Below are positions 1,306-63,806 of a stretch of DNA of 64,000 nt, piece after piece. The position numbers and the translations under genes were made by a program. The stretch is from Leucoraja ocellata. Taxonomy: Eukaryota. Below the pieces are notes generated by a model. The model did no database searches and was not told the origin of the DNA. It saw nothing but the letters and a program-made list of their open reading frames with translations. Location of the stretch: assembly GCA_036785375.1 (NCBI GenBank), contig JAWMAR010001270.1:62001-126000 (forward strand), written 5' to 3'. The stretch's first letter is position 1; every line of letters starts with the position of its first letter.

Positions 1306-1360
1306 ATGACAGTGGAAGCATCATTTCGGTACATGGCCCTTCTGGTGACAGTTTGGCAAG
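1306..1360 (+). CDS. G1 leader exon MTVEASFRYMALLVTVWQ
   Basis: 55 nt, phase-1 donor G|gtact; same length and similar sequence as the G3, G4 and G5 leaders. Confidence 0.85.
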
Positions 1361-4300
1361 GTACTTTTAGATATATGTGCCGGTCCATCATATTCAATTC
1401 TGTTTTAGAATACTCCATTTAGTTGCCCACTGTGAATTTAGTTACAGTGCTTCTCCAGCTCGCTTGTCGCTAATTCTAATTTACTGTTGTAATTTTCAAC
1501 TCTTGATTCATTTTCCTTGTCCAGTTTGTGCAACTGTTTTCAGTGTTTTTCCTTAATTTCTGGCAGCCAACGAAGTAACTTCGACCAAAGTGGACCAATT
1601 CCCGAAAGAGCTGACAGTCCACAGAGGAGGCAATGCGTCCATGTTCTGCACGTTCTCAATACAACAAGTTACTCTTGATGTTTCTTGGTGGAGATGGGGA
1701 GAGAAGACATTTATAGAACCAGACAGCAGAAAAATAATTTCTACCAAAAAGGGCAGTGGGGATTTTGTTCTCCTGAATGCAAATGTAGCGGACTCCGGGG
1801 TTTATTATTGTAAAGTGAAACATCAGCAGCAATCTATCGGAGATGGAGCTGGCTCCAGGCTGACTGTAATTGGTAAGTATCCCATGACGGAGAGAACGTA
1901 AGCTCTCTATAGTATAAATTATGCTCTCTAATGTGAATAACATCACATTTTATCGCTGGGTTAAAACTGGATGATTACTAATAACTGTATTTTATGTTAT
2001 GAATTCAAACCACTCCGCCGACTTGAAATCTGAAATGTCTGGAAATAATTAGCTGATCGGGCAGCATGTGTGTGGCGAGGGAGGGTTGTTCTCGTTTTTC
2101 GTGCTTCCAGGGGGCCTTTTCCTTTGTCCTTCTGTAGTCGCGCTGCTATCGCCCACGATTCAGATTCACTCTTCATCATTCCCACGGTGCTCAGTGACCA
2201 CATTGTTTTTCAGTGAAGATGCTCAAGCCACTTGGATATTTAATCTGGACTGTGGGAAGTATGGCGGCTTTTTCCTCACGGGAATCATTTTAACACATTG
2301 AGTCTGGGTCTGTTCTTATGTATAATGAAAAGTCACCATTCCAGGCCAACTGTGGCTACAACCTCCCCAGAACTGTGTCCACCCACAGTCCACACACAAT
2401 CTTACCCTTTTTGACGCAACCGCTACAAATTGTCTACCCAGTATTTGTTATAACTAATTTTCAGAAATCTATTAGTTTTATCCTTAAAGTCAGGAAACGT
2501 GTGAATAAAGGGAGCTCTCATGATTTGGATGTAATAAAGATAGACAAAAAACGCTGGAGTTACCCTGCGGGACAGGCAGCATCTCCAGACTGAAGAAGGG
2601 TCTCGACCCGAAACGTCACCCAATTATTTTTTCTAGAGATGCTGCCTGTCCCGCTGAGTTACATTTTTGTGTATTCGAGCATTTTTATTTAACCGCCAAA
2701 TATCTGTAAAGCACGAACAGAATGTAATTGTCTTTTGAGGAAACACCAGTGCTCCTGTCCTTGCAAATCGTGGTTTCCATTTACACGACCCTCGGTTGAA
2801 ATGCCTACAAGTAAAACGGCGCTGTCACTGAACTTAGCAACAAATATTTATTCCACGTAAAATAATCTGTTTTTGTGCCATGGAGAAACTGAGTTTTAGT
2901 TGGTAGTGCACTCGCTGAGGTTGGGAATAAACACATAACTCTCTTCCGAAGGCAATAATGATCCTGATTCAATAACTTGTTAGTACAAAAATGGAATGTA
3001 AGAAGATTTAAAAGTTAGATGTTCAACAGATTGCTTGTACTGGGCTCACAATACACCTGTCCTTCCAGCTAAACACTGACTAGATTTAACTGAGAAAGAT
3101 CAGTGTTCGTAAATGACAAATATGGAGTTCGGTTCAATAGAATCTTACTTACATGTAAGTAATCGAGCGTTCAATATATCGAGCAAATTTAGAAAAGGTC
3201 ATAGATATAGATAAAATGTGTTGCCACATTGGAAGTCACTTTCACGTTCTATCACCTTTATTTGTTATTATCAACCAATTGTCAGTATAACTCAATCATA
3301 CCGTATATCGCGGCCTGGAAAAGGTTTTCCTTGTGAAAGTTACTTCATCTGAACTCTCAACCCCAGTCTGGCACATGTGACAATTAAATGTATCTTGAAT
3401 CTTGTATCTTGAACTATTATGGGGCCAAACCTCAGATCGATAGATGTAGCCAAACCCTGCCCCTCGACCATATGCATTGGCGAGATGTGAATATATACAG
3501 GGCTGGATTCGTTAGGATTCGTTAGTCTGTGTGCAGTTTAACAATCTCCTCGCAAATTCGTGGTTTTTCTTCCGTTGCTACGCTAACTTACCCATTGCCA
3601 ACTTTTCGCTGGTTGGTAGGGTAGCCAGTGGTAAATTATCCCGTGATAATTGATTGTGGTGGGGAAGAATGAGGACAGTTGATATGGATGCGACAGGAAA
3701 ATTGGATAAATTAATAGGAGTTTAATAGTCAGCGTGAAGGCGACACCGGGCCTGTATCATTCTTTGCAACAAACATGTAAAACACAGTCATTGCTGGCGT
3801 AATTACTAAATATTGCTGTCAGCTTCTTCGGCGCGCTAAATCTGGCACTTCCATTCAGAACAATGGGACATTCTCCGCATATTACTTAAATCGAAAATCA
3901 CATTCCTATGTGTTCCTTGAATGTATTTTACTGTCCATGGTAAGACGAACTATAAATCAGTGACAAATCCATGAGTTTAAAAGTGAACGTACCGATAACC
4001 CATGTGGTCATGATACTGCAATGTCTTCACAAGCCGTATGACAGAGTATTCATTGACATGGAAAGAAGACATCCAACATAACTTGTTTTCCTTCTGTTAC
4101 AGCTCCGCCAACTCCCCTGAGCATTAGCCAAGTTAATGGCAGTTCGCCGCCAAAACTTGTGTGTCAAACGGCTGCCTTTTCCCCGAAGGAAGTCAAAATA
4201 TCCTGGCAAAGAAATGGTGTAACAATTTCCACCGGGGAAGAACCTGTGAACAACAGTAGCGTGGAGGGATTGTATGTGGCTTCCAGCTTTCTCGAAGTAA

Positions 4301-7300
4301 CAAAGCCTACCTGGCGCGTTGATATTTACACCTGCCTAGTGTCACATGTCTCCCTTGCGGTCCCCGCCAGAGTTGACTACACCGTCAAGCCAGGTAAGAC
4401 TGGCAAACAGAACTGGGAACAGAGGGAGACCTCCGATCCGATTTAGAAATTATATCTGGCCGAATACTGTACGTGTAGTAGTAAATGTTAACCTATTTAT
4501 TCACAGTAGAATATCGATGTGCAAGCAACCTAATGCATCATTTAGCGCTATATTTTCTCAATTAGAACTGCGACGATTAATTAATACGTTTAATGTATAT
4601 CGTGCGTGTGAAACAGCAAACTTTCAGGCACTTGACCGTGGTGTAGCAAGCAAACATTCAACTCTCGACTACAAAGTGACATAGTATGACGAATGGGGAA
4701 GGAGATTGCTCTGAACAAGACATATTTTCTTTAAGACAGGAAGTCGGCTTTTAACGTTTGTATTAAGGCGATAAATTTCACTTCCCAGAGATACGCGAAT
4801 CTTTGTAATTCCGTACCTCGGAACATCACAGATCCATAATGTTGTATTTCAGAGCTGAGATCAATAGTTTTTGAAAATGATGATCAAGGGCAACAGGTGC
4901 ATAGGAACGCGCCATCTCCTGCAAATTCCCTTCCGAGTCACACACCATCATGACTTGTAAATAAATCGGCCGTATCGTCGCTTGGATTTGATCTTGGAAC
5001 TCCCTACCCAATAACACTGGAATTATCTTCGAGAGGACTGCAGTGATTCACTGCACTGCCACACTGTGAAGGACAAGTATGAATTGGGAATACTGTATGT
5101 GCTGGCCTTGTCAGTTTACCCAGATCATTTGTGTTTTAAAATCAAAAGGTATGAACAATGGGCAAGAATTGGATTATAATCGAGGAACGACCACAATCTT
5201 GCACCCGGAGAGGTCATCTGACCTTATTCTCTAGTCCTTATAAGTTTACCAACATGAAATGTCACTATATTCGTCTAGTTGTATTCAAATGTAATTATTC
5301 TCATCCGTTTACTGTCCATGATGCAACCAACTACCCACACTATGCCCCTCAATGCCCTTCTGGCTTATAACCGCCCCTTAAATGTTCTACCATTTCTACC
5401 AAGTATCATATGTGCCAGGAGCAGGTAAGTAGGAGGCAAAGGAGATTTCTTTTTAAATGTTTCCAGCATCTGCAAAGTTCTGGAGATACTTGGCATCCCT
5501 GGTAGCTTCTGCGGAGGGTAGCTGAAGAATGGTCACTACTCGAAACGTAATTTCCCTCCAGCAGTGCAACTAAGCCTGTTGAGTTCCTACGACAGGCAGC
5601 TGGGACTAGCTCGGTTGGGCAACGTGCTCGGCATGGGTGAGTTTGGTGGAATGACCGGTTTTCGTGCTTTGACTCTCCTAATTTCTCATAATCTGCGATT
5701 TGGAGGCAAATCTTGTTGGAAGGCCTGCCTGTTTCTTGAAATATTTTAACACGTTAAAGGCTTGCAATCCCGCACGGAAATGTAAATTGCTTTTGTTACA
5801 CCTTAAAAGCTGTAGAATCAGGTGCTATATGCCAGTCCTAAAATATGGAATCTGCTAAGATAAAAGCAAGTCTCACTTTATACTTCATAAGTAACTTTCA
5901 TACAGAGAGAGAAGCTCACTGGATCATTGTGTGACACGGTTTACGTGTTTACCATACATCTGTGTTGGAAGGAACTGCAAATGGTGGTTTACACTGGTGT
6001 AACAGCGGGCCAAGCAGCATCATCGAAGAGAAGGAATGGGTGACGTTTCGTGTCAAGACACCTCTTCAGACTGAGAGTCAGTGGAAAGGGAAACTAGAGA
6101 TATGGAAGGTTACAAAGAGATGTCAGCTGAAAATGACAGATCAAAGCAGACGATATATATTTATTCGCTAACTTGCAAATAATGCAATTCGTTCCATTCG
6201 GTATATATTGGAATGCTTGTACACCAAGGATTAAAAAGACACATTCGGAGTGCTCTGCCTTCCTGACTCCTAATTTCTCACCAGTTTCTTGGTTTATCTG
6301 TTTTACAGTTTTAAATGTATCTGCTTCTCCTGCAGACTCTAATCTCGCACTGATTCTCGGATGTGTACTGGGCGTATTGGCAATTTTAATCCCGATTATA
6401 ATTTTGATAGTACTCAGAATAAAGGCAACAAATGGTAAGACCGTTATTTATTTTTGCCAATTGCTTTAATATCCTTACAGTATTTCAGAAAACAGGAACA
6501 TTGAATTAATAAATGTCGAGTGCAGAAGAAGAAACATTGTAGGTCATCATTAGGTGATCATTAGGTCATCATTAGGTGATCATTCACATAACAAAAACAT
6601 TATGACAGTTAACTATTGAAATGTGCTGGAACATTTTATTTTTTTCAAAATTCGAATTATTCGCTCATCGACTGCGTCTTTATTTCACATCTAAGAGGAA
6701 TTGTTCATACATTACATTTTATTCTTTAAAACTATTGAATCTTAAGGAATTTGATATGGATCTTGACTTTGTTTGTGAGCAACCTGCTCTAACTTGCCAC
6801 ACTTTTTATTTTCATTGTAATTTTGGAATGTGACACGGCTGCTGACACGCTATCACCATTTGATAATTTAATTCAAAGTCATGTTCGATTACATATTACA
6901 GACTATGCGAAGTTAATACACTAACACAAGATTGCAAAAACCGCTATTGCTAAACGGTTTCAAATATAACGGCGCCATCAGGAGTTCTTACTTTAGCCAA
7001 TACATTTGATTATCTTCAAAGACACAATATTCATTTTGTTGTCTTGTTTTCTTTAGATGTTAATAAAAATTCGATGGAATCAAGTCGAAGTGCAGAAACG
7101 GTAGGGTGCAATGCTCTTAGTATTGCCATTTTTTTTCAAAAATGTTCTTTAGCAAAGATTTTAATTTCATTGAGTAAAATCTAGAATTATTGTGGCACAG
7201 TGGAAGCTGTCCTGTTTATATCAACCTTGCATTTTCGAGTAATTACCAATATTATTTTCAATTTCAAAGAATGCACTCCAAATCATTAACGTTAAGTCAC

Positions 7301-10300
7301 TGATGAAGCGTTTGTCATGTTCATCGATCTGCTGCTGTCGGGCAAAAAACTTTGTTCTCTCAAGGATGCGATTCGGGGGCAGGTAACATAACTCTAAAAT
7401 GTTCTGAGTAGGACGGTTGGATTGTCGATAGATTCTGCTGGCACAATGACCTGGCCATTATCGTTGGGGGAAACTCGAAGTTGGCTGCACGAAGCATTCT
7501 GGACCCGCTAGATTGAGCAGTAGCGATGCCTTCAGATCATCGGGGTCATTTAGTGAGCATAATCACGTTCAAACATGCGCCATCGCTCATCTGTCAGTAA
7601 AACACAAGGGGACTCGGTTTTCGACAGGAATTGGCCATAACGTTGAAAAATCACAAAATAAAACTGATAAAGAAAATAAACAGCGGTAAACGAACGTAGT
7701 GGGTTAGACCCAATAACTATGTAATTACCCGACTCGCACTCAGATAAAGGTATAAGCATCTTTAATATCCATTCCAGTATCAGATATGCAGTACATTATA
7801 CATTCATTCTGCTGCAACTACTGAATACAGTAAGCGAGTTCTTACACCATAAAGCATGCACTAGGCAGAGTTATTATTACTAAGCATTCTGATTGGCTAA
7901 CATCCAATAGTCAATCTACAACCCCCATTGCCTAATCTACACCATATCCCTTATACCTCTCTCCATTCCCCACCAGGAAGGTCTCGGGGCATTCCCAATC
8001 TTTTTATGGAGATCCAATCAGTTCCCCTCAACTAACACTTTCCTCCATCTGGCAGAATACGTCTTCAGCTTTAACAACTATTCTTGACTCCTCTCACTTT
8101 CTTTAAGTCAAAGGTATAGCCTTGTATCTTTGTTTATATTTAGAATTGACACCCTGTGCAAGTGTACAAACAGCATGGGTGCGACTCCCCCGTTGATGGA
8201 TTGCTTTCACAATTTGTCACCACGGACACCTTTCCATTTCTAGGCCTGGTTTTCAACGTGATTGTTCTCAAACACGACTTACAAATTAGATTTTTGGATT
8301 CAAGTTTCTTGGTGCAGTGGATCACTTCTGAGGCAGAGGTGACCTGTACAATAGGGATGGTTGCACCTGAACTGTTTGGAACCAATATCGAGGCAGTTCC
8401 CGAGGCAGGTTCGGTCCTGGGCCTCCTCCATTGATAGAGTAAGACCACATGCAAATTGGTGGAACAGCACCTCATAATTCACTTGGGTAGCTTCACCCTT
8501 GGATAGTGGTATGAACATTAAATTATACAATTTTTTGCTAACTTCTACATACTCACCTCCCCTCGCTTTTCTGCCCCTTCTCCCTCCCCAATCCCGATCC
8601 TCAGCTAAATGTCAGGTAACCAGTTCACAATTACGTATCCTGTAGGTCCCTTGCAGTCAGAAACAGGTGAGTTGATCATGGGGAACAAGGATATGGCGGA
8701 CCAATTGAATAACTACTTTGGTTCCGTCTTCACTAAGGAAGACATAAATAATTTGCCGGAAATAGCAGGGGACCGCGGGTCAAAGGAGTTGGAGGAATTG
8801 AGTGAAATCCAGGTTAGCCGGGAAGTGGTGTTGGGTAAATTGAATGGATTAAAGGCCGATAAATCCCCAGGGCCAGATAGGCTGCATCCCAGAGTACTTA
8901 AGGAAGTAGCTCCAGAAATAGTGGATGCATTAGTAATAATCTTTCAAAACTCTTTAGATTCTGGAGTAGTTCCTGAAGATTGGCGGGTAGCAAACGTAAC
9001 CCCACTTTTTAAGAAGGGAGGGAGAGAGAAAATGGGGAATTACAGACCAGTTAGTCTAACATCGGTAGTGGGGAAACTGCTAGAGTCAGTTATTAAAGAT
9101 GGGATAGCAGCACATTTGGAAAGTGGTGAAATCATTGGACAAAGTCAGCATGGATTTACGAAAGGTAAATCATGTCTGACGAATCTTATAGAATTTTTCG
9201 AGGATGTAACTAGTAGCGTGGATAGGGGAGAACCAGTGGATGTGGTGTATCTGGACTTCCAGAAGGCTTTCGACAAGGTCCCACATACGAGATTAGTATA
9301 CAAACTTAAAGCACAAGGCATTGGGGGTTCAGTATTGATGTGGATAGAGAACTGGCTGGCAAACAGGAAGCAAAGAGTAGGAGTAAACGGGTCCTTTTCA
9401 CAATGGCAGGCAGTGACTAGTGGGGTACCCCAAGGCTCAGTACTGGGACCCCAGCTATTTACAATATATATTAATGATCTGGATGAGGGAATTGAAGGCA
9501 ATATCTCCAAGTTTGCGGATGACACTAAGCTGGGGGGCAGTGTTAGCTGTGAGGAGGATGCTAGGAGACTGCAGGGTGACTTGGATAGGCTGGGTGAGTG
9601 GGCAAATGTTTGGCAGATGCAGTATAATGTGGATAAATGTGAGGTTATCCATTTTGGTGGCAAAAACAGGAAAGCAGACTATTATCTAAATGGTGGCCGA
9701 TTGGGAAAGGGGGAGATACAGCGAGACCTGGGTGTCATGGTACACCAGTCATTGAAGGTAGGCATGCAGGTACAGCAGGCAGTAAAGAAAGCGAATGGTA
9801 TGTTAGCTTTCATTGCAAAAGGATTTGAGTATAGGAGCAGAGAGGTTCTACTGCAGTTGTACAGGGTCTTGGTGAGACCACACCTGGAGTATTGCGTACA
9901 GTTTTGGTCTCCAAATCTGAGGAAGGACATTATTGCCATAGAGGGAGTGCAGAGACGGTTCACCAGACTGATTCCTGGGATGTCAGGACTGTCTTATGAA
10001 GAAAGACTGGATAGACTTGGTTTATACTCTCTAGAATTTAGAAGATTGAGAGGGGATCTTATAGAAACTTACAAAATTCTTAAGGGGTTGGACAGGCTAG
10101 ATGCAGGAAGATTGTTCCCGATCTTAGGGAAGTCCAGGACAAGGGGTCACAGCTTAAGGATAAGGGGGAAATCCTTTAAAACCGAGATGAGAAGAACTTT
10201 TTTCACGCAGAGAGTGGTGAATCTCTGGAACTCTCTGCCACAGAGGGTAGTTGAGGCCAGTTCATTGGCTATATTTAAGAGGGAGTTAGATGTGGCCCTT

Positions 10301-13300
10301 GTGGCTAAGGGGATCAGGGGGTATGGAGAGAAGGCAGGTACGGGATACTGAGTTGGATGATCAGCCATGATCATGTTGAATGGCGGTGCAGGCTCGAAGG
10401 GCCGAATGGCCTACTCCTGCACCTAATTTCTATGTTTCTATGTTTCTATGTATCCCTCGTGGGATCGCACCACCCCTAGACAACAATTGTCCTATCCAGG
10501 AACACCTAGTCTTGGGTTGTCTGTTGCTGGCATTGATCTGTCCTGGTCTTTTTTTGCTTCCAGACCCCCCTCTCTACAATCAGTCTGAAGAAGGGTCCTG
10601 GACCGAAACGGCACCTATCCGTTTTCTGCTAAAATGCTGCCTGTCCCACTGAGATACTGCAGCATTTTGTGTCTGTCTCAGGTTTTGCTAATATTACATG
10701 GGTGGATTTAAGTTAGATTGGCGGGGGGGGGGGGGGGGGGGGGGGGGAATCCAATTCAGGACTGAGGCAGGTGAGAAACAGATGCTGAGAGAATGTTTAG
10801 AGGAGAGAATAGGCAGGAGCATGGCAAGGAGTGAGGAAAGACTATTGGATTGAATTGTATTTATTTTAATGCGAGAGGTCTATAGGTAATGTGTAGCGGG
10901 TACGTGCGACTGGGACATTGTAGCCATTACAGAAACCTGGCTAAGAAAGGGACAGGATACAGATGTTATAGGAGAGAGAGGTAGCAGTTAGAGGAAGTAG
11001 TGTTGCTTTATTTAAGGAGAACTTAATGGCAGTAGTCCGAGATGACATTATTGATCGTCGTTCAGTGAGTTTATATGGGTGGAAATATGAAATTGTTGTT
11101 GGGAGCGTTCTTTAGACCTCCAAATAATCAACAGGAATTTAGAAGAGCAAATATGCCAGGAGATTGCAGGCATCTTCAAGACTAATGTTGTCAAATCTGG
11201 GATTTTCATATTCTCAATATAGACTGGGATTGTCATAACACCTAGAGTTTAGACGGAATGGAAATTGTCAAATATGGTCAGGAAAGTTACCTTAGACAAT
11301 ATGTAGGGGGGCCTTACATAGGAGAGGGCAAAGCTTGATCTACCCAAAGGACATTGGAAAGGGAAGTGACTGATGTGTTCATAGATTACCCTTTTGGGAC
11401 CAGTGCTCACTGTTCTATTAACTTTAAAATAGTTATGGATAAAGACTCATGGGTGGACCCATGAGTTCAAATTCTGAATTTGGGCAAGGCCAACTTTTAA
11501 GGTGTTAGACAGGAATTTGCTAAATTTAATTCAAGTAGGTTGTTTGTGGGCAAAGGAACATTCAGGAACATACTTGGAAAGGAAATCAGGAGGCCAACAG
11601 GTGGTCAAGAGGAAACGCTTGCAAATAATATTAAGGTAAATCCAGATTTTATAAAATATTAGGCAAAATAAGCTAACTAGAGAGTATAGGCCCCACAGAA
11701 ACCAAAGTGGTCATCTCTGCGTGGAGCGGCAGGAGATGGGCAAGGTACTCAACGAGTATTTCTCCTCTGTTTTTAACATGAAGACTGGGAACTTGGGACA
11801 GTTAATGAAAATGTCTTGACAGCCCACATTACGATCGAGGAGGTGCTGAATGTCCTGAGGTGTATGAATGTAGAATAATCTACCAGACCTGATCAGATAT
11901 ATCAGAGGACACTGTGGGAAGTTAGAGAAGAAATAGCATCTTGGCTGAGGTAAACAAATCATCATTAAACAGGTCTGAGCTGCAGAAAATGTTTGGATTT
12001 ATTTCCCGACATGCAATACCTCACACTTATCTGCACATGCCTAACTGATCAAGATCCTGCTGTAATATTTGATGACCATCTTCATTATCTACTTTACCAC
12101 TGACTTAATGTCATCTGCAAGCTTACCAAAAAAATCTTCTATATTCTGGCCCTAATCATTGACATGCAACACAAACGGCAATGAATCCAGCACCAATCCC
12201 CGAGGCACACCCTTACTCCCAGGCCGCCAGACATTCCTTGCTGGAGACAGAGGAACTTGGAACAATAATAGAAATCTCGAGGACAGTATGTATGATGTTT
12301 GAGGAGCATACACAAAAAGCTGGAGTAACTCAGTGGGACAGGCATCATCTCTGGAGAAAAGGAATGGGTGCCGTTTTGGGTCGAGACACTTCTTTAGACC
12401 CTTCTTCCTCATGGTTGAGGAGGTACTGAATGTCATTGCAAAGAAAATCTTAGGAACTATAGATCAGCGAGCCAAATATCTGTGGTAGGCAAATTACTGG
12501 AGAGAAACATTAGATTGCATAGGATCCAGGGAGTACTGGAAAGAATTGGCTTCATGGAAGGAAGCAGAGGTGATGGCGAAAGGTTGTTTGTCTGACTGGA
12601 GGCCCGTGACTAGTGTTATGCCTCAGGGATCAGTGCTGGGCCCATTGCTATTTGTGGTTTGTATCAATGATTTGAATGAGAATGTACAAGGCATGGTTAA
12701 TAAGTTTGCAGGTGACACTAAAGTGGGTGGTATCGTAGATAACGCAGATATTTGATCAGTTAGGGAAATGGGCTGAGAGATTGTTAATGCAGATAAGCAC
12801 AAGGTGTTGCATTTTGGGAAATCAAACCAGGACAAGTCCCCACGCAGTGAAAGGCAGGGTCCTGGGAAGTGTTGTGGAGCAAAGGGATCTAATATTGTAG
12901 GTACCCAAAATTGCTGGAGAAACTTAGCGGGTGCAGCAGCATCTATGGAGCTAAGGAAATAGGCGACGTTTCGGGCCGAAACCCTTCTTCAGACTGATGA
13001 GGAGTGGGGGGGGGGGGGGGGGGGGGGGAGGAAGGAAAAAGGGAGGATGAGCCCGAGGGCAGGGGGGGCAGGGAGATGGGAGGAGACAACTTGAGGGTTA
13101 AGGAAAGGGAGGAGACAGGAAGGGCTAGCAAAATTGGGAGAATTCCTTGAAAGTGGTGTCACAGATAGAGTGGTCAGGTGACTTTTGGTATGTTGGCCTT
13201 CATCAGTCAGGATGGAGAACGTACAGACTCCAGACAGGCAAGCACCCAGGGTCCAAGGTCAGGATCCAACCCGAGTCTCTGGCACTAAGGCAGCACCAAT

Positions 13301-15036
13301 CTTTGGGCAGCACCTCTATTGCTGCACCACTGTGTGAATAGGGTAAATATTAGTCAAACCCTCAATCAGTGATCAGACACAAATATCTCAACAGGGGACT
13401 TTGCATAATCTTGTACCCTGATGTTTGAGCACTACTCGAATTTATCAACCATTCTTAGTCTTGGAATCCAAAAACTCAGACCAATTACATTTCTTTATAT
13501 AAAAAAGGATATTCATCTGGTTGGCCTATACTCTACCGCTACATCAGAGAATCTGGTGCTTCTGTACCCATGAACTTGCGACTGCATTGTCACAGGACAA
13601 TGAGTACTGTAGAAGCTGTACTTTGTCCAGGCGCAGCCACTCAGCACTGAGATGCGGGGATCATGAATGCATCTTGCAATGAATGGGCTCAACAGCTGAA
13701 AATGGGGCTGCTTCATTGGTTGAGAGGGGCCCCGTCTCATCAGCACATCTAAGATCACAAAAGAATCTTGATGAACTGGGACAATGGGCCGAGGAATGGC
13801 ACATGGAGTTTAATGCAGAGGTTTTACATTGTCAAGACAAACTTGGACAGGGCTAATACAATAAATGGTAGGCCCTGGGGAGTGCTGTAGAACAGAAAGA
13901 CCTAGAAGTACATAGTTCCATGAATATGGTGATGCAGGTAGACAGGGTGCTGAAGAAAATATTTGGCATGCATGTCTTCATGAGTCAGGTTGAGTACAGG
14001 AGTTGGGACATGTTATTGCTGGCTAAGATGTTGGTACGGTCACATTGAGTACTGTGTACAGTTCTGGGGTGAAAATACAGCTATTCACCAGGATAGGGAG
14101 AATGGGGTTAAGGTGGGAGAGGGATATTAAAGGGGCCTTTGGAGCAACTTTTTCACCAAAAGGGTGATTCGCGAGCAGCCAGAGGAAGTGCGAGGCAAGT
14201 TCAATTACAATATACAAGACACTTGGACAGGTTCACGGCTCGATAAGGTATGATACATACATACTTGGGCCACAAAGCGACTTCCATCACAATTAGCAGG
14301 AGGTGAGGGAGGATTTGTAGGGCGCCCAGCTGTTTTTCTGTAGCAATGACCTGCACTCACTGGATGTCTCACTGTATCTTGCATAACAGCACACTGTATG
14401 ACACTCGCCTCCCTGTTCGCCCCATCCCACCCGATAGCAGCACACAGACAGCCATTGAATATTTAAAATGGCTCCTTCCACATGGGCTAGTCTGCTACTG
14501 GGTCACTGACTTTTGCATCGCCTGGTTGTGCCAGAGGCGAGTCGTGTCCATAACCAGGAACCCGGCCCTGCAAGCCTGGTTGTAACAGGCCATGTATAAA
14601 CACGACTTGCTTTCTGGGAAGGAACACCGAACGCTAGTTGAACGCCGAACTAATGTATTAGCATGCTGAAAAAGTAGTACTTTAAATCTTTACCTACACT
14701 TCCTAGGAGATTACACTAGCAATAACCTAGTATGAACATTAAGTGCAAAAATAAATATTGCTTTATAAATACAATTAAAAATTGGAGTAAGAAAAAATAC
14801 TTAAAGTAACTATCTTATACTAATCAATGATCGATATTTGAAAACAAAATCTATTCATGTATTTACTAACATCCGATATTTAATGACTTTCACAGACTAA
14901 AGGAAGCGAAGCTGACAAGCCTACTTACGCTGCTCTGCAGTTTTCCAAATCAATTAAATCAGCACCTAAACCCAAGAACGAACACCCAGTCTACGCAGAT
15001 ATAAATATTTCAAAGGGGAAACGGTACTGTGAATGA
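1306..15036 (+). CDS. G1: VJ-C1-TM IgSF receptor (SIRP/NITR-like), join(1306-1360,1567-1872,4103-4393,6336-6434,7057-7100,14896-15036), 311 aa; possible extra mini-exon 14622-14654
   Basis: All introns are GT-AG with compatible phases (1,1,1,1,0). Most exon sizes match paralog G4. The joined frame is open from ATG 1306 to TGA 15034-15036. Confidence 0.85.
1567..1872 (+). CDS. G1 V-J Ig exon
   Basis: Acceptor tggcag|, Cys-B (MFC), Trp-C (VSWW), DSGVYYC, J-like GDGAGSRLTV, donor G|gtaagt; 306 nt. Confidence 0.95.
2590..2620 (+). ncRNA. Minimal hammerhead ribozyme motif in a Penelope-type short repeat (other copies: 12962-12992 -, 23201-23231 -, 39266-39296 -, ~6039-6069 -, ~10585-10615 +)
   Basis: CTGAAGA core, stem II GGG-TCTCGA-CCC, GAAAC-GTC cleavage triplet with palindromic ACGT. 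Confidence 0.65.
4103..4393 (+). CDS. G1 C1-set Ig exon
   Basis: LVCQTAAFSPKEVKISW...GLYVASSFL...YTCLVSHVSL is the C1 signature; ttacag| acceptor and G|gtaaga donor. Confidence 0.95.
6336..6434 (+). CDS. G1 TM exon DSNLALILGCVLGVLAILIPIIILIVLRIKATN
   Basis: Uncharged hydrophobic run with basic stop-transfer residues; 99 nt, phase 1-1. Confidence 0.9.
7057..7100 (+). CDS. G1 cytoplasmic exon 1 DVNKNSMESSRSAET
   Basis: Polypyrimidine tract plus tttag|, 44 nt, donor gtaggg; same size and phase as G4 exon 48265-48308. Confidence 0.75.
7940..8535 (+). mobile_element. Decayed Penelope-like element fragments
   Basis: VLGLLH...KLVEQHLIIHLGSFT..SGMNI resembles the C-terminus of Penelope ORFs; related pieces lie at ~21190-21480 and ~37300-37590. 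Confidence 0.55.
8641..10450 (+). mobile_element. Young 5'-truncated CR1 LINE (family A, TTTCTATG tail) with uninterrupted RT ORF (8609-10351)
   Basis: NYRPVSLTS, QHGF, LDFQKAFDKV, GVPQGSVLGP and FADD motifs; microsatellite tail; TSD (g)tatcc at 8635-8640 and 10450-10455. Confidence 0.95.
10850..14230 (+). mobile_element. Old fragmented near-full-length CR1 ORF2, interrupted by younger repeats
   Basis: APE motifs LNCIYFNARGL (~10850) and DIVAITETWL (~10915); RT motif PQGSVLGPLLF (~12620); many stops and frameshifts. Confidence 0.75.
14896..15036 (+). CDS. G1 terminal exon TKGSEADKPTYAALQFSKSIKSAPKPKNEHPVYADINISKGKRYCE*
   Basis: ctttcacag|ACTAAA start shared with the G2, G3 and G4 terminal exons; two Tyr motifs homologous to the G4 ITIM and ITSM. 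Confidence 0.85.
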   Translation, partial: TKGSEADKPTYAALQFSKSIKSAPKPKNEHPVYADINISKGKRYCE

Positions 15037-57270: not shown

Positions 57271-60124
57271 CTTACGTTTGCACACACGTTTGATCATCTT
57301 ATGTTCCTTCACACATGTCACCTTTTTTGATTCACGTTTTCTTATTCATCTTACCATAATAACTATTCTTTGTGTATTAAAAATGTGAGCCTGAAATAAC
57401 TAAAAGGAAACACATTTACAAAGATGATTCTTGAACAATTATAACTTTTAAAAAGTTACGTCGCACATTGCATTGACCGGGAACAAACTCCATGGACTAT
57501 ACACCTTCCCAATGCTGGTCTTTAAAAATTTGGCATCACAAGTTGTCAAGTGCTCAAATCTCCAAGAATGCAACAATTTTAAGTTAGCAGTCATACTGTA
57601 AAGAATTCTATTTTTTGTCTGCGAATGTAACAGATTAATACTTGGGAGCAAGGAGCTAGTTAATTCCTGAATTTTAACAATGGAAAGAGGATATAACATT
57701 TTTGCTTATAGTCACATATGGCACCACGGAGAAAGGCAGCAGAGGAATGCACTATATATTGTAAGCGAAAAAGAATGCAATCAAAGATTCAGTTGACTAT
57801 GGGTTTCCCTTTCTAAATTCCTTGTGTGAAGAATTAGACGATCCGAATCAATAGCGAAAAACTCTTAATGGTACGCCGCCCAATTGCCATCTAGTGGATG
57901 ATCAAATCCTTATCAACAACATCACTTGCTGTAATGTATCTCATTTAAATGCTGCAATTGAGGCTTGGAGTTTTTGGCTGAAATGAAAGAAATTCGCAGC
58001 GGGACTAACTCAAAGGTCATCACACCCTCCTGCATTCTAGGTGGGATAATCTGTGACAGAAATATACGAGGCTGAATAGTTGACAGCTCTGTCATCTTAT
58101 GCTCCGGTAGGACAAAGTCTCAATTTGAGAATGAGGTAGAGGTAAATGGATTTCAATATGTGTTGTCCAAACGCGGTGCACCTACAATGGCTGGGAGAGA
58201 AATCATTTTGGAGTAGGAAATCGAAGAAAACATATTTCCTAGATCATACTCGCTGAAATATAAATATACTCAAAATGCATCACGATGCCTTAGTCATGTG
58301 ATTTACGGCGTTGGTGTCACACGCTTCAGGCATTCTATGAAAACCTATTTCTTATGCACACCCTTCTATTTTGCAGTATGCCGGTGAAAGCAGTGGTTCG
58401 GTACATGGGTCTTCTTGCTTTGCTTTGTCAAGGTATGCTTAGTTTCTGTACCGATTTCGCTAAGCAAATCATATTTGACAATATTTTACACTAGTATGCC
58501 ACAGTAAATTAAATTTACAACGTTTCTACAATTGGCTTACCATTATTTCCTAATTGTTTTGTATTTGTGTATCCATTGGCTCTTTTTCTTGGTGCTGTAT
58601 GTACAAATGTTTTCATCATATTTACTTATTTCTGCCACTGACAAAAGCAACTTCGAACAAAGTGGAACAATTCCCCGCAATCCTGAAGGTCCCCAGGGGC
58701 AGAAATGAGACCATGTTCTGCAAATTTCCAATATTAAAATAAACCGCTGACGTTTCATGGTGGAGAGAGGGCGAGAAGACATTTATAGAATCGGACAACA
58801 GAAAACAATTCAAAGTAGGCAAGGGAAGGAGTACATTTACTTTATTGAATGTGAGTGTCGATGACTTCGGGATGTATTACTGTCGAGTGAAACATATCGG
58901 CAATGGAACTGGCTCCCAGCTAATTGTGTTAAGTAAGTGTCTTTGTTACGAATAGTGGGGTATGTTCTTCTGTTGCAATGTTACTAAAGCTTCCTGGTGG
59001 TGGAAATATTAATCTTAACTAGCTCTATAATTTTAATGGTTACTTCCGAGATGGAAATCTGAAATAAAGGGGAAATACTGAAAAATATTCCATCCGTCGG
59101 TCAATATAAGTTCAGCGAGAGTTCTGTTATAGTTTTGTTTTATTTACTCCGGGTTATGTTAAAAAGTCATAGTGACGTTACCCTGGTTATGGCTCTTGTA
59201 AATTGGCAGGTCACTTTATATTTTGACCTCCAGCTTTTCAAATACCCAACCAAATTCACGTTACTCCGAATTTCCAGAAAGTTGCAAATTTCCCACGCCG
59301 ACAAACTTTCACATCAACTAAAAACGGAGGAGAAATTGATCTCACAGTTTTGAGGTGGATAATTTTGTTTTCACATTCACTGTCTCCAGGAAAGTTCATG
59401 GAATGAAAAAAGAAAAGAAAGAACTACAACTGAAATTCTCCGATATTATTTCTTTGCTTGGTAATCATTTATATGGCACAGGGAGTAAAATGTAATATAT
59501 CTTTATTAATTAATAATTATAGTACAATGAGATGTTATTACAGAAATGAAGGAAAATACATATGCTTAAACAGAAACGAGGTGATTACGCAATGAATTGA
59601 CAAAAAAAGGTACAATTAACTCTCCCGCTCGCTAAATATTACTGACAGTGGCTCCAGCACAAATGGAACCATGGTCGTTAATGTCTTGTTAATAAAATAT
59701 ATGAAATGAGAAACAGAGTTTGCTCCGTTCATCCTTGCGTGCTTTTCGAGAAAAGCAGTTGTCGCCGATGTACTTCTGCCATTCAGTGCAGTCCATTTTC
59801 TGTAACTACCATATGCACATAAGAAAGAGCAAATGTTCAGAAGAAATGCGTGATTTTGAATTCAACATAAAGCACTGTCACGGAATCTTACCAAGCAATA
59901 CCTACCCGTGTCACATTCCTTCATAATAATCGCGCTAGGCAGCACTCCATTCATGCTTTGTTTCAATTACACTACTTACCTTGATATCCTCCGTAGAACA
60001 AAATTATAAACTCAACAAACAACCACACGGATAACAGGAGGCAGCAGCAACGGTTCAGCGACAATTATGTTCATTGAAATAAAATATATTTTGCAGCTTC
60101 ACGCTTTTATTTTTATTGTTCCAG

Positions 60125-60421
60125 CTCCCCCGACTCCATTGAAAATTGTTGCTATTGAAGGAAGTGCACCGCATTTGCCGCAACTCGTGTGTAAAACGGC
60201 TGCGTTTTATCCAGAGGAATTAGACGTAATCTGGCAAAGAAACAACGTGGAAATTTTGACCGGCATTGAAACCGTGAGAAACAGAACAGCGGATGGACTT
60301 TATGAGGCTTCCAGTTTTTTGCACGACACGCAGCCTGCGCCAGGCAAAACTGTTTACACCTGCCTGGTATCCCACGTATCTCTTACAGCCCCTGCCAGTT
60401 TCAGCTACATTGTCGAGCAAG
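60125..60421 (+). CDS. G5 C1 exon (intact)
   Basis: LVCKTAAFYPEELDVIW...GLYEASSFL...YTCLVSHVSL; ttccag| and G|gtaagc. Confidence 0.9.
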
Positions 60422-62395: not shown

Positions 62396-62497
62396 AAACC
62401 ACTGACAAAACACAAATTATTGGATGTGTAGTGGGCGGACTAGTAATTGTGATTCTGATCATATTTTTCACAAGATTCGGATTAAAGGCGCAACCGG
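62396..62497 (+). CDS. G5 TM-a exon ETTDKTQIIGCVVGGLVIVILIIFFTRFGLKAQP (alternative acceptor at 62390)
   Basis: Hydrophobic, family-like sequence; donor G|gtaaga. Confidence 0.85.
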
Positions 62498-62629
62498 GTA
62501 AGAACGTTGCATATTTGACCAAGTACTGCAATGTATCGGTTCTGTTCATTGATCAGAGACAGGATACATTCTATTGCAGCGAGAAACACGATTTCAATGT
62601 TATTTACTGCTTGAAAATTGATAATAGCC

Positions 62630-62866
62630 GTCTATCTTTCAAGAGAGAACTAGATAGGGCTCTTCAAGGGAGAGCTAGATAGGGCTCTTCAAGAGAGAGC
62701 TAGATAGGGCTCTTAAAGATAGCGGAGTTAGGGGATATGGGGAGAAGGCAGGCACCGGGGTACTGATTGTGGATGATCAGCCATGATCACATTGAATGGC
62801 GGTGCTGGCTCGAAGGGCCGAATGGCCTACTCCTACACCTATTGTCTATTGTCTATTTTCTATTGT
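62630..62866 (+). mobile_element. CR1 3' tail (TATTGTC repeats) with three tandem ~23-24 bp repeats at its 5' end
   Basis: FKRELDRAL; the 3' UTR resembles family A. Confidence 0.8.
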
Positions 62867-63704
62867 CAGTCAAACACTGAATCTGAATAGAAAATTATTT
62901 CATCTGCCCCACACCTCCCTGGCATCACATATAACCCTTAAAGGTTCCTTCCAGTTTCAACTATTTGGTCAAACGAGGAAATGCAGGAAGCATTTTAAAC
63001 GAGTTCTACATCAGATTAGAAATACAGCTGCGTAGTTGTTCAAACACGAGAGATAGAAGTGTGAATTGTATTATTTGTGATGAAAGACCAACGTGCAAGC
63101 AGCTCAAAAACTAATACCTCATTCAATGCATCCCGACTGAGATGAATTAACAACCTGAATTTATGTGCGGCTTATTTCATAGTAAACAATCGTGAGTATA
63201 TAGGACTGCGCGGCCAGATTCGGCTCAATATCCATCTACAAATTTGTAGACGACACCACGGTTGTGAGCATGATCGCAGACAGTGGCATGTGCGTGTGTC
63301 CCTAGTTCTCGAATTCACTCTTAACCCCCTCTTTTACATCACCCATTGCTAAAATACGTCGTTACATCTTCACGGTGTCTGCACGCGTGTCCTATTATGT
63401 GGATCGATGACAAATTATACTGTTCAATGCTTCTGTTTTTTTTTTAAACTGATGTCTAGTGTAACAATATGAAAAAATAAATCTCTTCTTAACCTTAATC
63501 AATTATCCCCTACAGAAAGAGCTACTTTGTAAAGTGACGCGTTTGCTTGATAATTAAAACATTAACCCATAATTGTTGCAATATGTATTTCCGACAATAT
63601 TTTTTGGTGGGTTGGAGCGTTACTTTTCAATGCTCTGCCTTATTAGCTTTTACTCCCTGTATAATTAATATGTCTTACGGTTTCTTATTTTTCACCTAAT
63701 CCAG

Positions 63705-63806
63705 AATGTACCTATAAAATACTGATTCTCACACGTGCAGTGGGCGGGTTGGTAATTTTACTTTCGATTATAATTTTGACCAGATTAGCATGGACGGCAC
63801 AACATG
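63705..63806 (+). CDS. G5 TM-b exon ECTYKILILTRAVGGLVILLSIIILTRLAWTAQH (Arg in TM)
   Basis: atccag| acceptor, 102 nt, G|gtaaga; homologous to TM-a; not reported in the ORF track. Confidence 0.8.

Follow-up and report, generated by a model that had tools for sequence, protein, structure and literature searches.

The two tandem transmembrane (TM) exons of the gene G5 look, judging from the sequence, like the outcome of a gene fusion and not like a purpose-built exon pair. The window, by which we mean the whole 64,000-nucleotide stretch analysed (C1270:62001-126000, in a genome of 3.4 Gb), lies within a tandem array of leader-V-C1-TM-tail genes. The sequence covered comprised all 320 kb of contig C1270, 204 kb of C578, which is probably the other haplotype of C1270, and 120 kb of C26. 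The tandem exons are most likely a real feature, but one produced by the fusion of genes in a cluster that evolves by birth and death. We put at even chances the reading that G5 is a fusion gene whose open copies would encode short-tailed, non-inhibitory receptors, with FcR-gamma signalling limited to products in which C1 is joined to TM-b. At most, G5 would toggle between a silent and an activating receptor.

All exons of G5 described here lie on the forward strand. The leader exon (58378..58432), recognized from the sequence and by tblastn with the Narcine leader, ends in phase 1. It is followed by a V exon (58648..58932), which contains a J-like G-x-G end within the same exon, and by an open C1-set exon (60125..60421; Pfam C1-set, 1.5e-9, above the cut-off). 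A V region encoded by a single exon with a J-like G-x-G, followed by a C1-set domain, defines the non-rearranging VJ-C1 (PRARP-like) receptors, and G5 has this arrangement. The V exon was assigned by Pfam Ig/V-set on an open copy; the V-set match to the V exon alone, at 22.2 bits, is below the cut-off, and the catshark homologs score above it. The V exon of the window is dead, with a TAA at 58740-58742 and a 12-nt deletion, and the window copy itself would give at most a V-less product. An earlier note on this DNA had cautioned that the locus carries a dead V exon, which is true of the window copy and untrue of two other fused copies, at C1270:161.8 kb and C578:992 kb, whose V and C1 exons are open. 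The stop at 58740 appears to be polymorphic: it is absent from run X3 and from organism D and present in part of the X4 contigs, and one C578 copy has the 12-nt V deletion without the stop. The V exons of G5 copies (C1270:161845, C578:992189 and C26:12139804) differ by ~6-7%, with clustered replacements, and the C1 exons by 1-2.5%; the V-exon divergence may be a sign that the ligand-binding domain undergoes diversifying selection or conversion.

The two TM exons behind C1 are TM-a (62396..62497) and TM-b (63705..63806), separated by an intron of 1207 nt. The earlier note had described both as 102-nt phase 1-1 exons with good splice sites, and we confirmed this: each has an AG acceptor preceded by a pyrimidine tract and a branch-point-like word, and a GTAAGA donor. 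Another AG, 6 nt upstream of the TM-a acceptor, is also in frame. TM-a is a neutral TM exon with Cys. TM-b, identified by sequence and homology, has an Arg codon (CGT, 63734-63736) in the same column in which TM-a, G1 and G2 have Cys, exactly as previously noted. The two exons are 65.7% identical over 99 nt, much like other paralog types, whereas TM-a is 79.8% identical to TM-e, the TM of the unfused ITIM-type paralogs, and is its sister in the tree (bootstrap 90-91). TM-b is thus ruled out as a recent copy of TM-a.

The earlier note found no Ig exon between the TM exons. The stretch does contain the decayed 3' end of a C1 exon together with its intron, from 62911 to ~63161. Downstream of TM-a, the intron carries a high-copy SINE-like repeat, delimited by read depth (62630..62862, ends approximate, no strand assigned), and then the last piece of TM-a's own downstream intron (62863..62910). 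These 48 nt match the intron block that follows the TM in five other types, clearly in d and e (reached by 0/300 and 2/300 shuffles, respectively) and more weakly in b, c and G1 (25, 17 and 103 of 300). The rearrangement junction lies at 62910/62911. Immediately beyond it are 67 nt of C1-exon 3' end (62911..62977), decayed by one extra, frameshifting base, the loss of the Cys codon and a donor changed from GT to GA. The local alignment score of this remnant is 101, compared with a shuffle maximum of 41 (0/200 shuffles reach the score), and all four C1 types tested exceed their shuffle maxima. The remaining sequence up to TM-b (62978..63704) shows homology with the introns that separate C1 and TM in G4 (E 1.5e-7) and in G5 (E 1.5e-9), with no match to those of G1 and G2, and represents the former C1-to-TM intron of the TM-b gene. 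Because a C1 remnant and its intron separate the two TMs, TM-b is most likely part of a neighbouring paralog that has been decapitated. An assembly artefact was ruled out, as the junction and the exons are present in DNA runs of organism C, possibly the source species, and of organism D.

The sole tail exon behind TM-b is the last exon, found by homology just outside the window (C1270:126756-126867), and it is shared by both TMs. Compared with its nearest relative, it lacks 10 nt at one Tyr motif and 15 nt at the other, and it contains no Tyr. It starts in phase 0, so that splicing from TM-b gives Asp-stop in 7/7 copies; TM-a ends in the same phase and on the same base and would give the same Asp-stop. 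Read-through from TM-b yields 25 residues without an ITIM, again in 7/7 copies. First and middle tail exons were sought between TM-a, TM-b and the last exon, and none was found above shuffles (for the middle exon, 0/2 queries beat shuffles in either intron); the nearest downstream ITIM exons are 27 kb off, inside the next gene. An exon switch between inhibitory and activating forms calls for an ITIM-bearing tail reachable from the neutral TM, and the search revealed none. Since the common tail lacks Tyr and is out of frame with both TMs, neither TM choice gives an inhibitory receptor, contrary to the suggestion that alternative TM use could switch one ectodomain between the two kinds of signalling. 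We also looked for steric spacing or a frame relation that would make the two exons mutually exclusive and found neither, so inclusion of both TMs is possible.

The inhibitory counterpart of G5 is likely to be a separate gene. Two unfused genes with the G5 ectodomain (C578:1094134-1087480 and C26:12140072-12134700) have one neutral TM-e followed by Tyr-motif exons. Over ~2.6 kb, their leader-V-C1 region shares 97% identity with that of the fused Arg-TM genes, and the switch point lies near the window equivalent of 61824. Near-identical ectodomains thus stand on ITIM-tailed and on charged-TM, short-tailed genes, as in paired-receptor clusters. Both unfused ITIM paralogs are damaged, one by a non-consensus donor and the other by a frameshifted last exon.

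The cluster is a paired-receptor cluster that has been reshaped through unequal recombination. We found both copy-number change in the array and hybrid genes, which mark paired IgSF receptor clusters. On C1270, two TM exons stand behind one C1 in 7/14 V-bearing units, and sharp chimaeric junctions are present: the TMc+TMb units pass from G4-like to G5-like sequence inside the SINE-like repeat (the equivalent of 62630..62862), and the TMc+TMd units change to G2-like sequence, with a 36-nt piece at the junction. In the tail of G4-type genes, both the middle exon and a last exon with Tyr motifs are present. In three TMc+TMb units (C1270:190632-191875 and 232333-233576; C578 ~948400-947160), the TMc acceptor AG is gone and TM-b has Cys; these units are predicted to encode neutral, tail-less decoy-type receptors. 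Orphan modules in which TMd and a last exon lack any V or C1 exon upstream lie at C1270:135931, 177134 and 201173, ~10 kb behind TM-b modules. G1 (window 1306-15030) spans 8.4 kb from its TM to the last tail exon; a middle tail exon was searched for in G1 and G2 and not found, and the Tyr motifs of G1 may be out of frame. G2 is broken. Two G1-like units (C1270:43220-46350 and 244507-247640) have V and C1 exons without a TM and are possibly secreted or truncated. Other Arg types may be present in more distant V-C1 subfamilies of the family, which lie at C26 ~7.83-8.50 Mb, C26 ~11.96-12.08 Mb and C105:6.08 Mb.

The genome search revealed at least seven TM-b copies, four with Arg and three with Cys. 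Organism D, represented by two runs of one sample with DNA-type contigs and ~5-6% diverged, also has the Arg: one of its contigs covers the TM-b stretch, agrees with the window at 63734, keeps the frame open and has both splice sites intact. Another contig crosses 62910/62911 without gaps, and no contig reaches from TM-a to TM-b. The residue, whose conservation outside this copy the earlier note had asked about, is therefore not private to it, and its presence in 4/7 copies and in organism D rules out private decay. Arg and Cys copies of TM-b are ~2.5-3% diverged, less than the divergence from organism D; Arg is thus likely ancestral for TM-b and Cys a reversion, probably of the CpG type. By this comparison, the Arg is older than the split from organism D.

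Signs of constraint on TM-b are mixed. Between organism D and the open G5 copy, the exon has 1 synonymous difference in 102 nt compared with ~37 in 646 flanking nt (binomial p ~0.03, post hoc and assuming an estimated 38 differences in 748 nt); between organism D and the window copy, 3/45 differences fall in the exon (p 0.12, post hoc and not significant). The seven TM-b copies have 5 replacement sites versus 1 silent site, unlike the pattern of purifying selection. The TM-b acceptor and donor are intact in 7/7 copies and in organism D. The copies with Cys make up the clade with a dead upstream TMc acceptor (3/3 copies), where TM-b is the sole usable TM. The Arg falls in the outer third of the TM, 5th or 6th in its hydrophobic stretch, and the tail is short and ITIM-less in 7/7 TM-b copies, both as in FcR-gamma/CD3-zeta-coupled receptors; the open copies and organism D have an additional Arg directly before the helix. 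The residue three positions ahead of the Arg is Ile, so TM-b lacks the NxxR motif of the LRC-type subtype.

The closest named proteins are those of Mobula and Narcine, 64-69% identical over the V exon, followed by those of Hypanus, Pristis, Heterodontus, Scyliorhinus and Heptranchias, which points to a cartilaginous fish, most likely a ray, as the source; their RefSeq names, "NCR3LG1-like / SIRP-alpha-like", are automatic. In a PDB search, the best solved-structure matches were Ig light chains, and among the best 60 of 591 matches, mostly Ig light chains, B7-H6 (NCR3LG1) and SIRP-alpha were absent. Comparison within the family favours the view, put forward in the earlier note, that the Arg is an activating-type mark: apart from the age of the residue, this is supported by a catshark pair and by the association of Arg with tail type. 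Two catshark proteins share one 90%-identity cluster: XP_038661931.1 has Arg in the column of the TM-b Arg and a tail of 21 residues, and XP_038662960.1 has Cys in that column and four Tyr motifs. Among 80 family proteins, 14 have Arg at the TM-b column or the preceding column, 12 of them one column earlier than in TM-b. Tails longer than 60 residues occur in 1/14 Arg proteins versus 45/66 others, and at least two Tyr motifs, scored by a consensus ITIM pattern, in 0/14 versus 34/66; the Fisher p values (3e-5 and 2e-4, respectively) overstate the association, as the proteins are predicted, related and partly truncated. Excluded from this count were 10 rows that were isoforms or near-duplicates, 3 that were off-family or mis-anchored and 2 that had no residues ahead of the column, along with proteins of more than 520 aa and those in which neither a C1 end nor a TM, or only one of them, could be detected. 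When Arg or Lys was accepted within two columns and a single Tyr motif of any kind sufficed, the association was weaker (5/17 versus 40/65, p 0.027). None of the named batoid models examined has the Arg, and no named model examined has two TM segments. In a separate TM class (P0016, P0034, P0050, P0065, P0090 and P0108), the Arg precedes the TM-b position by one column and the inner end has a conserved Asp-His; this class is apparently an older activating type in sharks. The models of the family proteins P0176 and P0067 duplicate the TM, or the TM together with the tail, so that tandem TMs occur in other genomes as well. The genome has a candidate adaptor gene: TCR_zetazeta (PF11628) gave two matches over the cut-off, one of which we read as an Asp-bearing, FcR-gamma-like TM.

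We propose that a deletion between neighbouring V-C1-TM paralogs joined the G5 ectodomain and TM-a to the rear part of a paralog of the activating type. The captured half would have consisted of a scrap of C1, the Arg-bearing TM-b and the ITIM-less tail, and the deletion would have taken the tail exons of TM-a along with the leader, V and most of the C1 of the next gene. The open fused genes would then give rise to short-tailed receptors, of which the C1-to-TM-b form would pair with FcR-gamma through an Arg-Asp contact and the C1-to-TM-a form would be a silent decoy. The pairing of inhibitory and activating receptors would thus lie between genes, as in the KIR, LILR and FcR-like clusters. Three steps of this scheme are ones that we infer: a deletion as opposed to an old internal duplication, the use of TM-b in mRNA and the binding of an adaptor. 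It is possible, though unlikely, that selection has kept the fusion in two ray species, with a TM toggle between silent decoy and FcR-gamma activator opposite a same-ectodomain ITIM paralog forming a three-state system.

The same fusion could have left TM-b as an unused passenger, with only the TM-a form made, as a tail-less decoy, or with the copies decaying as pseudogenes and the Arg as a relic. The dead V exon of the window, the dead TMc acceptors, the broken G2 and the orphan TMd modules all speak of rapid decay, the 5:1 ratio of replacement to silent sites and the clade without Arg point in the same direction, and an unused 102-nt exon might stay open by chance over 5-7% divergence. Disuse is harder to reconcile with TM-b splice sites that are intact in every copy and in organism D, with an exon near-identical to that of organism D, and with the units in which loss of the TMc acceptor leaves TM-b as the only TM that can be used; on balance, we consider it rather unlikely. 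Were both exons included instead, the product would be a two-pass protein with TM-b inverted and its Arg and Lys facing the cytoplasm, where they would bind no adaptor. Normal splice signals on two in-frame phase 1-1 exons, 1207 nt apart, would permit this, the additional Arg directly before the helix suits an inverted segment, and P0176 is modelled with two tandem TMs. Yet the Arg column and the short tail are those of the family's single-pass, short-tailed members, and the clade that lacks a TMc acceptor has a single usable TM, which makes the two-pass form improbable.

We give similarly little weight to an origin of TM-b by an old duplication within one gene, from the C1 end through the TM plus ~190 nt. 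Such an event yields the same order of parts, and the remnant C1 and the tail exon do lean to the G5/TM-e lineage (bootstrap 81 and 75). Against it, TM-a is sister to TM-e (79.8%) and not to TM-b (65.7%), the intron of the remnant aligns further with that of G4 than with that of G5, and intergenic chimaeras are directly visible in the cluster. Least credible of all, and indeed very improbable, is the switch of one ectodomain between inhibition and activation. Its appeal came from two intact TM exons, one with a conserved Arg, and read-through of the TM-a donor does give a 61-residue tail with one T-x-Y-x-x-V match; this tail consists of intron and SINE sequence, and at the DNA level the switch is contradicted by the Tyr-less, out-of-frame common tail, the missing middle exon and the remoteness of the next ITIM exons. 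The fusion of neighbouring genes, with signalling confined to the TM-b form, remains the reading that we prefer.

The cluster would show how activating receptors are built in the oldest jawed-vertebrate lineage, through a one-base Cys/Arg change and the loss of both ITIM tyrosines, and how other ectodomains can capture an activating back half. Should TM-b be spliced in, an alternative-anchor isoform would have arisen by gene fusion. The inhibitory/activating splice switch would have been the surprising claim, and it fails. The wider V(J)-C1 family, whose members in rays and sharks include inhibitory and Arg-type ones, may be an NK- or myeloid-type paired-receptor system built on antigen-receptor-like domains. 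Among the papers accessible to the literature search, we found no description of the elasmobranch family as paired receptors and no alternative transmembrane exons in activating/inhibitory receptors; the family, which may repeatedly have gained a TM Arg and lost its ITIMs, is large and apparently undescribed.

The elasmobranch V-C1 RefSeq genes of Mobula, Hypanus, Pristis, Narcine, Heterodontus and Scyliorhinus are direct homologs of G5 with the same leader-V-C1-TM-tail plan. By domain plan, G5 falls with the joined-VJ receptors (PRARP, NKp30/NCR3, SIRP, NITR and UrIg). PRARP is organized as V-C1-TM-ITIM, NKp30 lacks a C1 domain and SIRP-alpha has two. In hybrids of the FCGR2C and SIGLEC14/5 type, unequal crossover joins one ectodomain to the signalling end of another gene; there the crossover replaces the TM and tail, whereas here both TMs remain. 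The joined-VJ class is non-rearranging, with a single-exon V that ends in a G-x-G J-like strand and then C1 (PMC11599192, PMC10751288), and UrIg is secreted, with three C1 domains (PMC12227049), unlike G5, which has TM exons. The literature also describes KIR fusion genes formed through unequal crossover (PMC5290243), the association of the Arg-TM forms of Xenopus XFL with FcR-gamma (PMC2413239) and, in FcR-gamma partners of the LRC type, a TM that begins with an NxxR motif (PMC6557307, PMC2413239). As in KIR/LILR (LRC) and XFL, inhibitory genes with a neutral TM and Tyr exons are intermingled in the present cluster with activating genes that have an N-terminal TM Arg and a short tail. In contrast to those systems, the ectodomain here is V(J)-C1 and not C2-type, the NxxR motif is absent, the Arg arose from a Cys-type TM by a point change, and the fusion keeps both TM exons in one gene.
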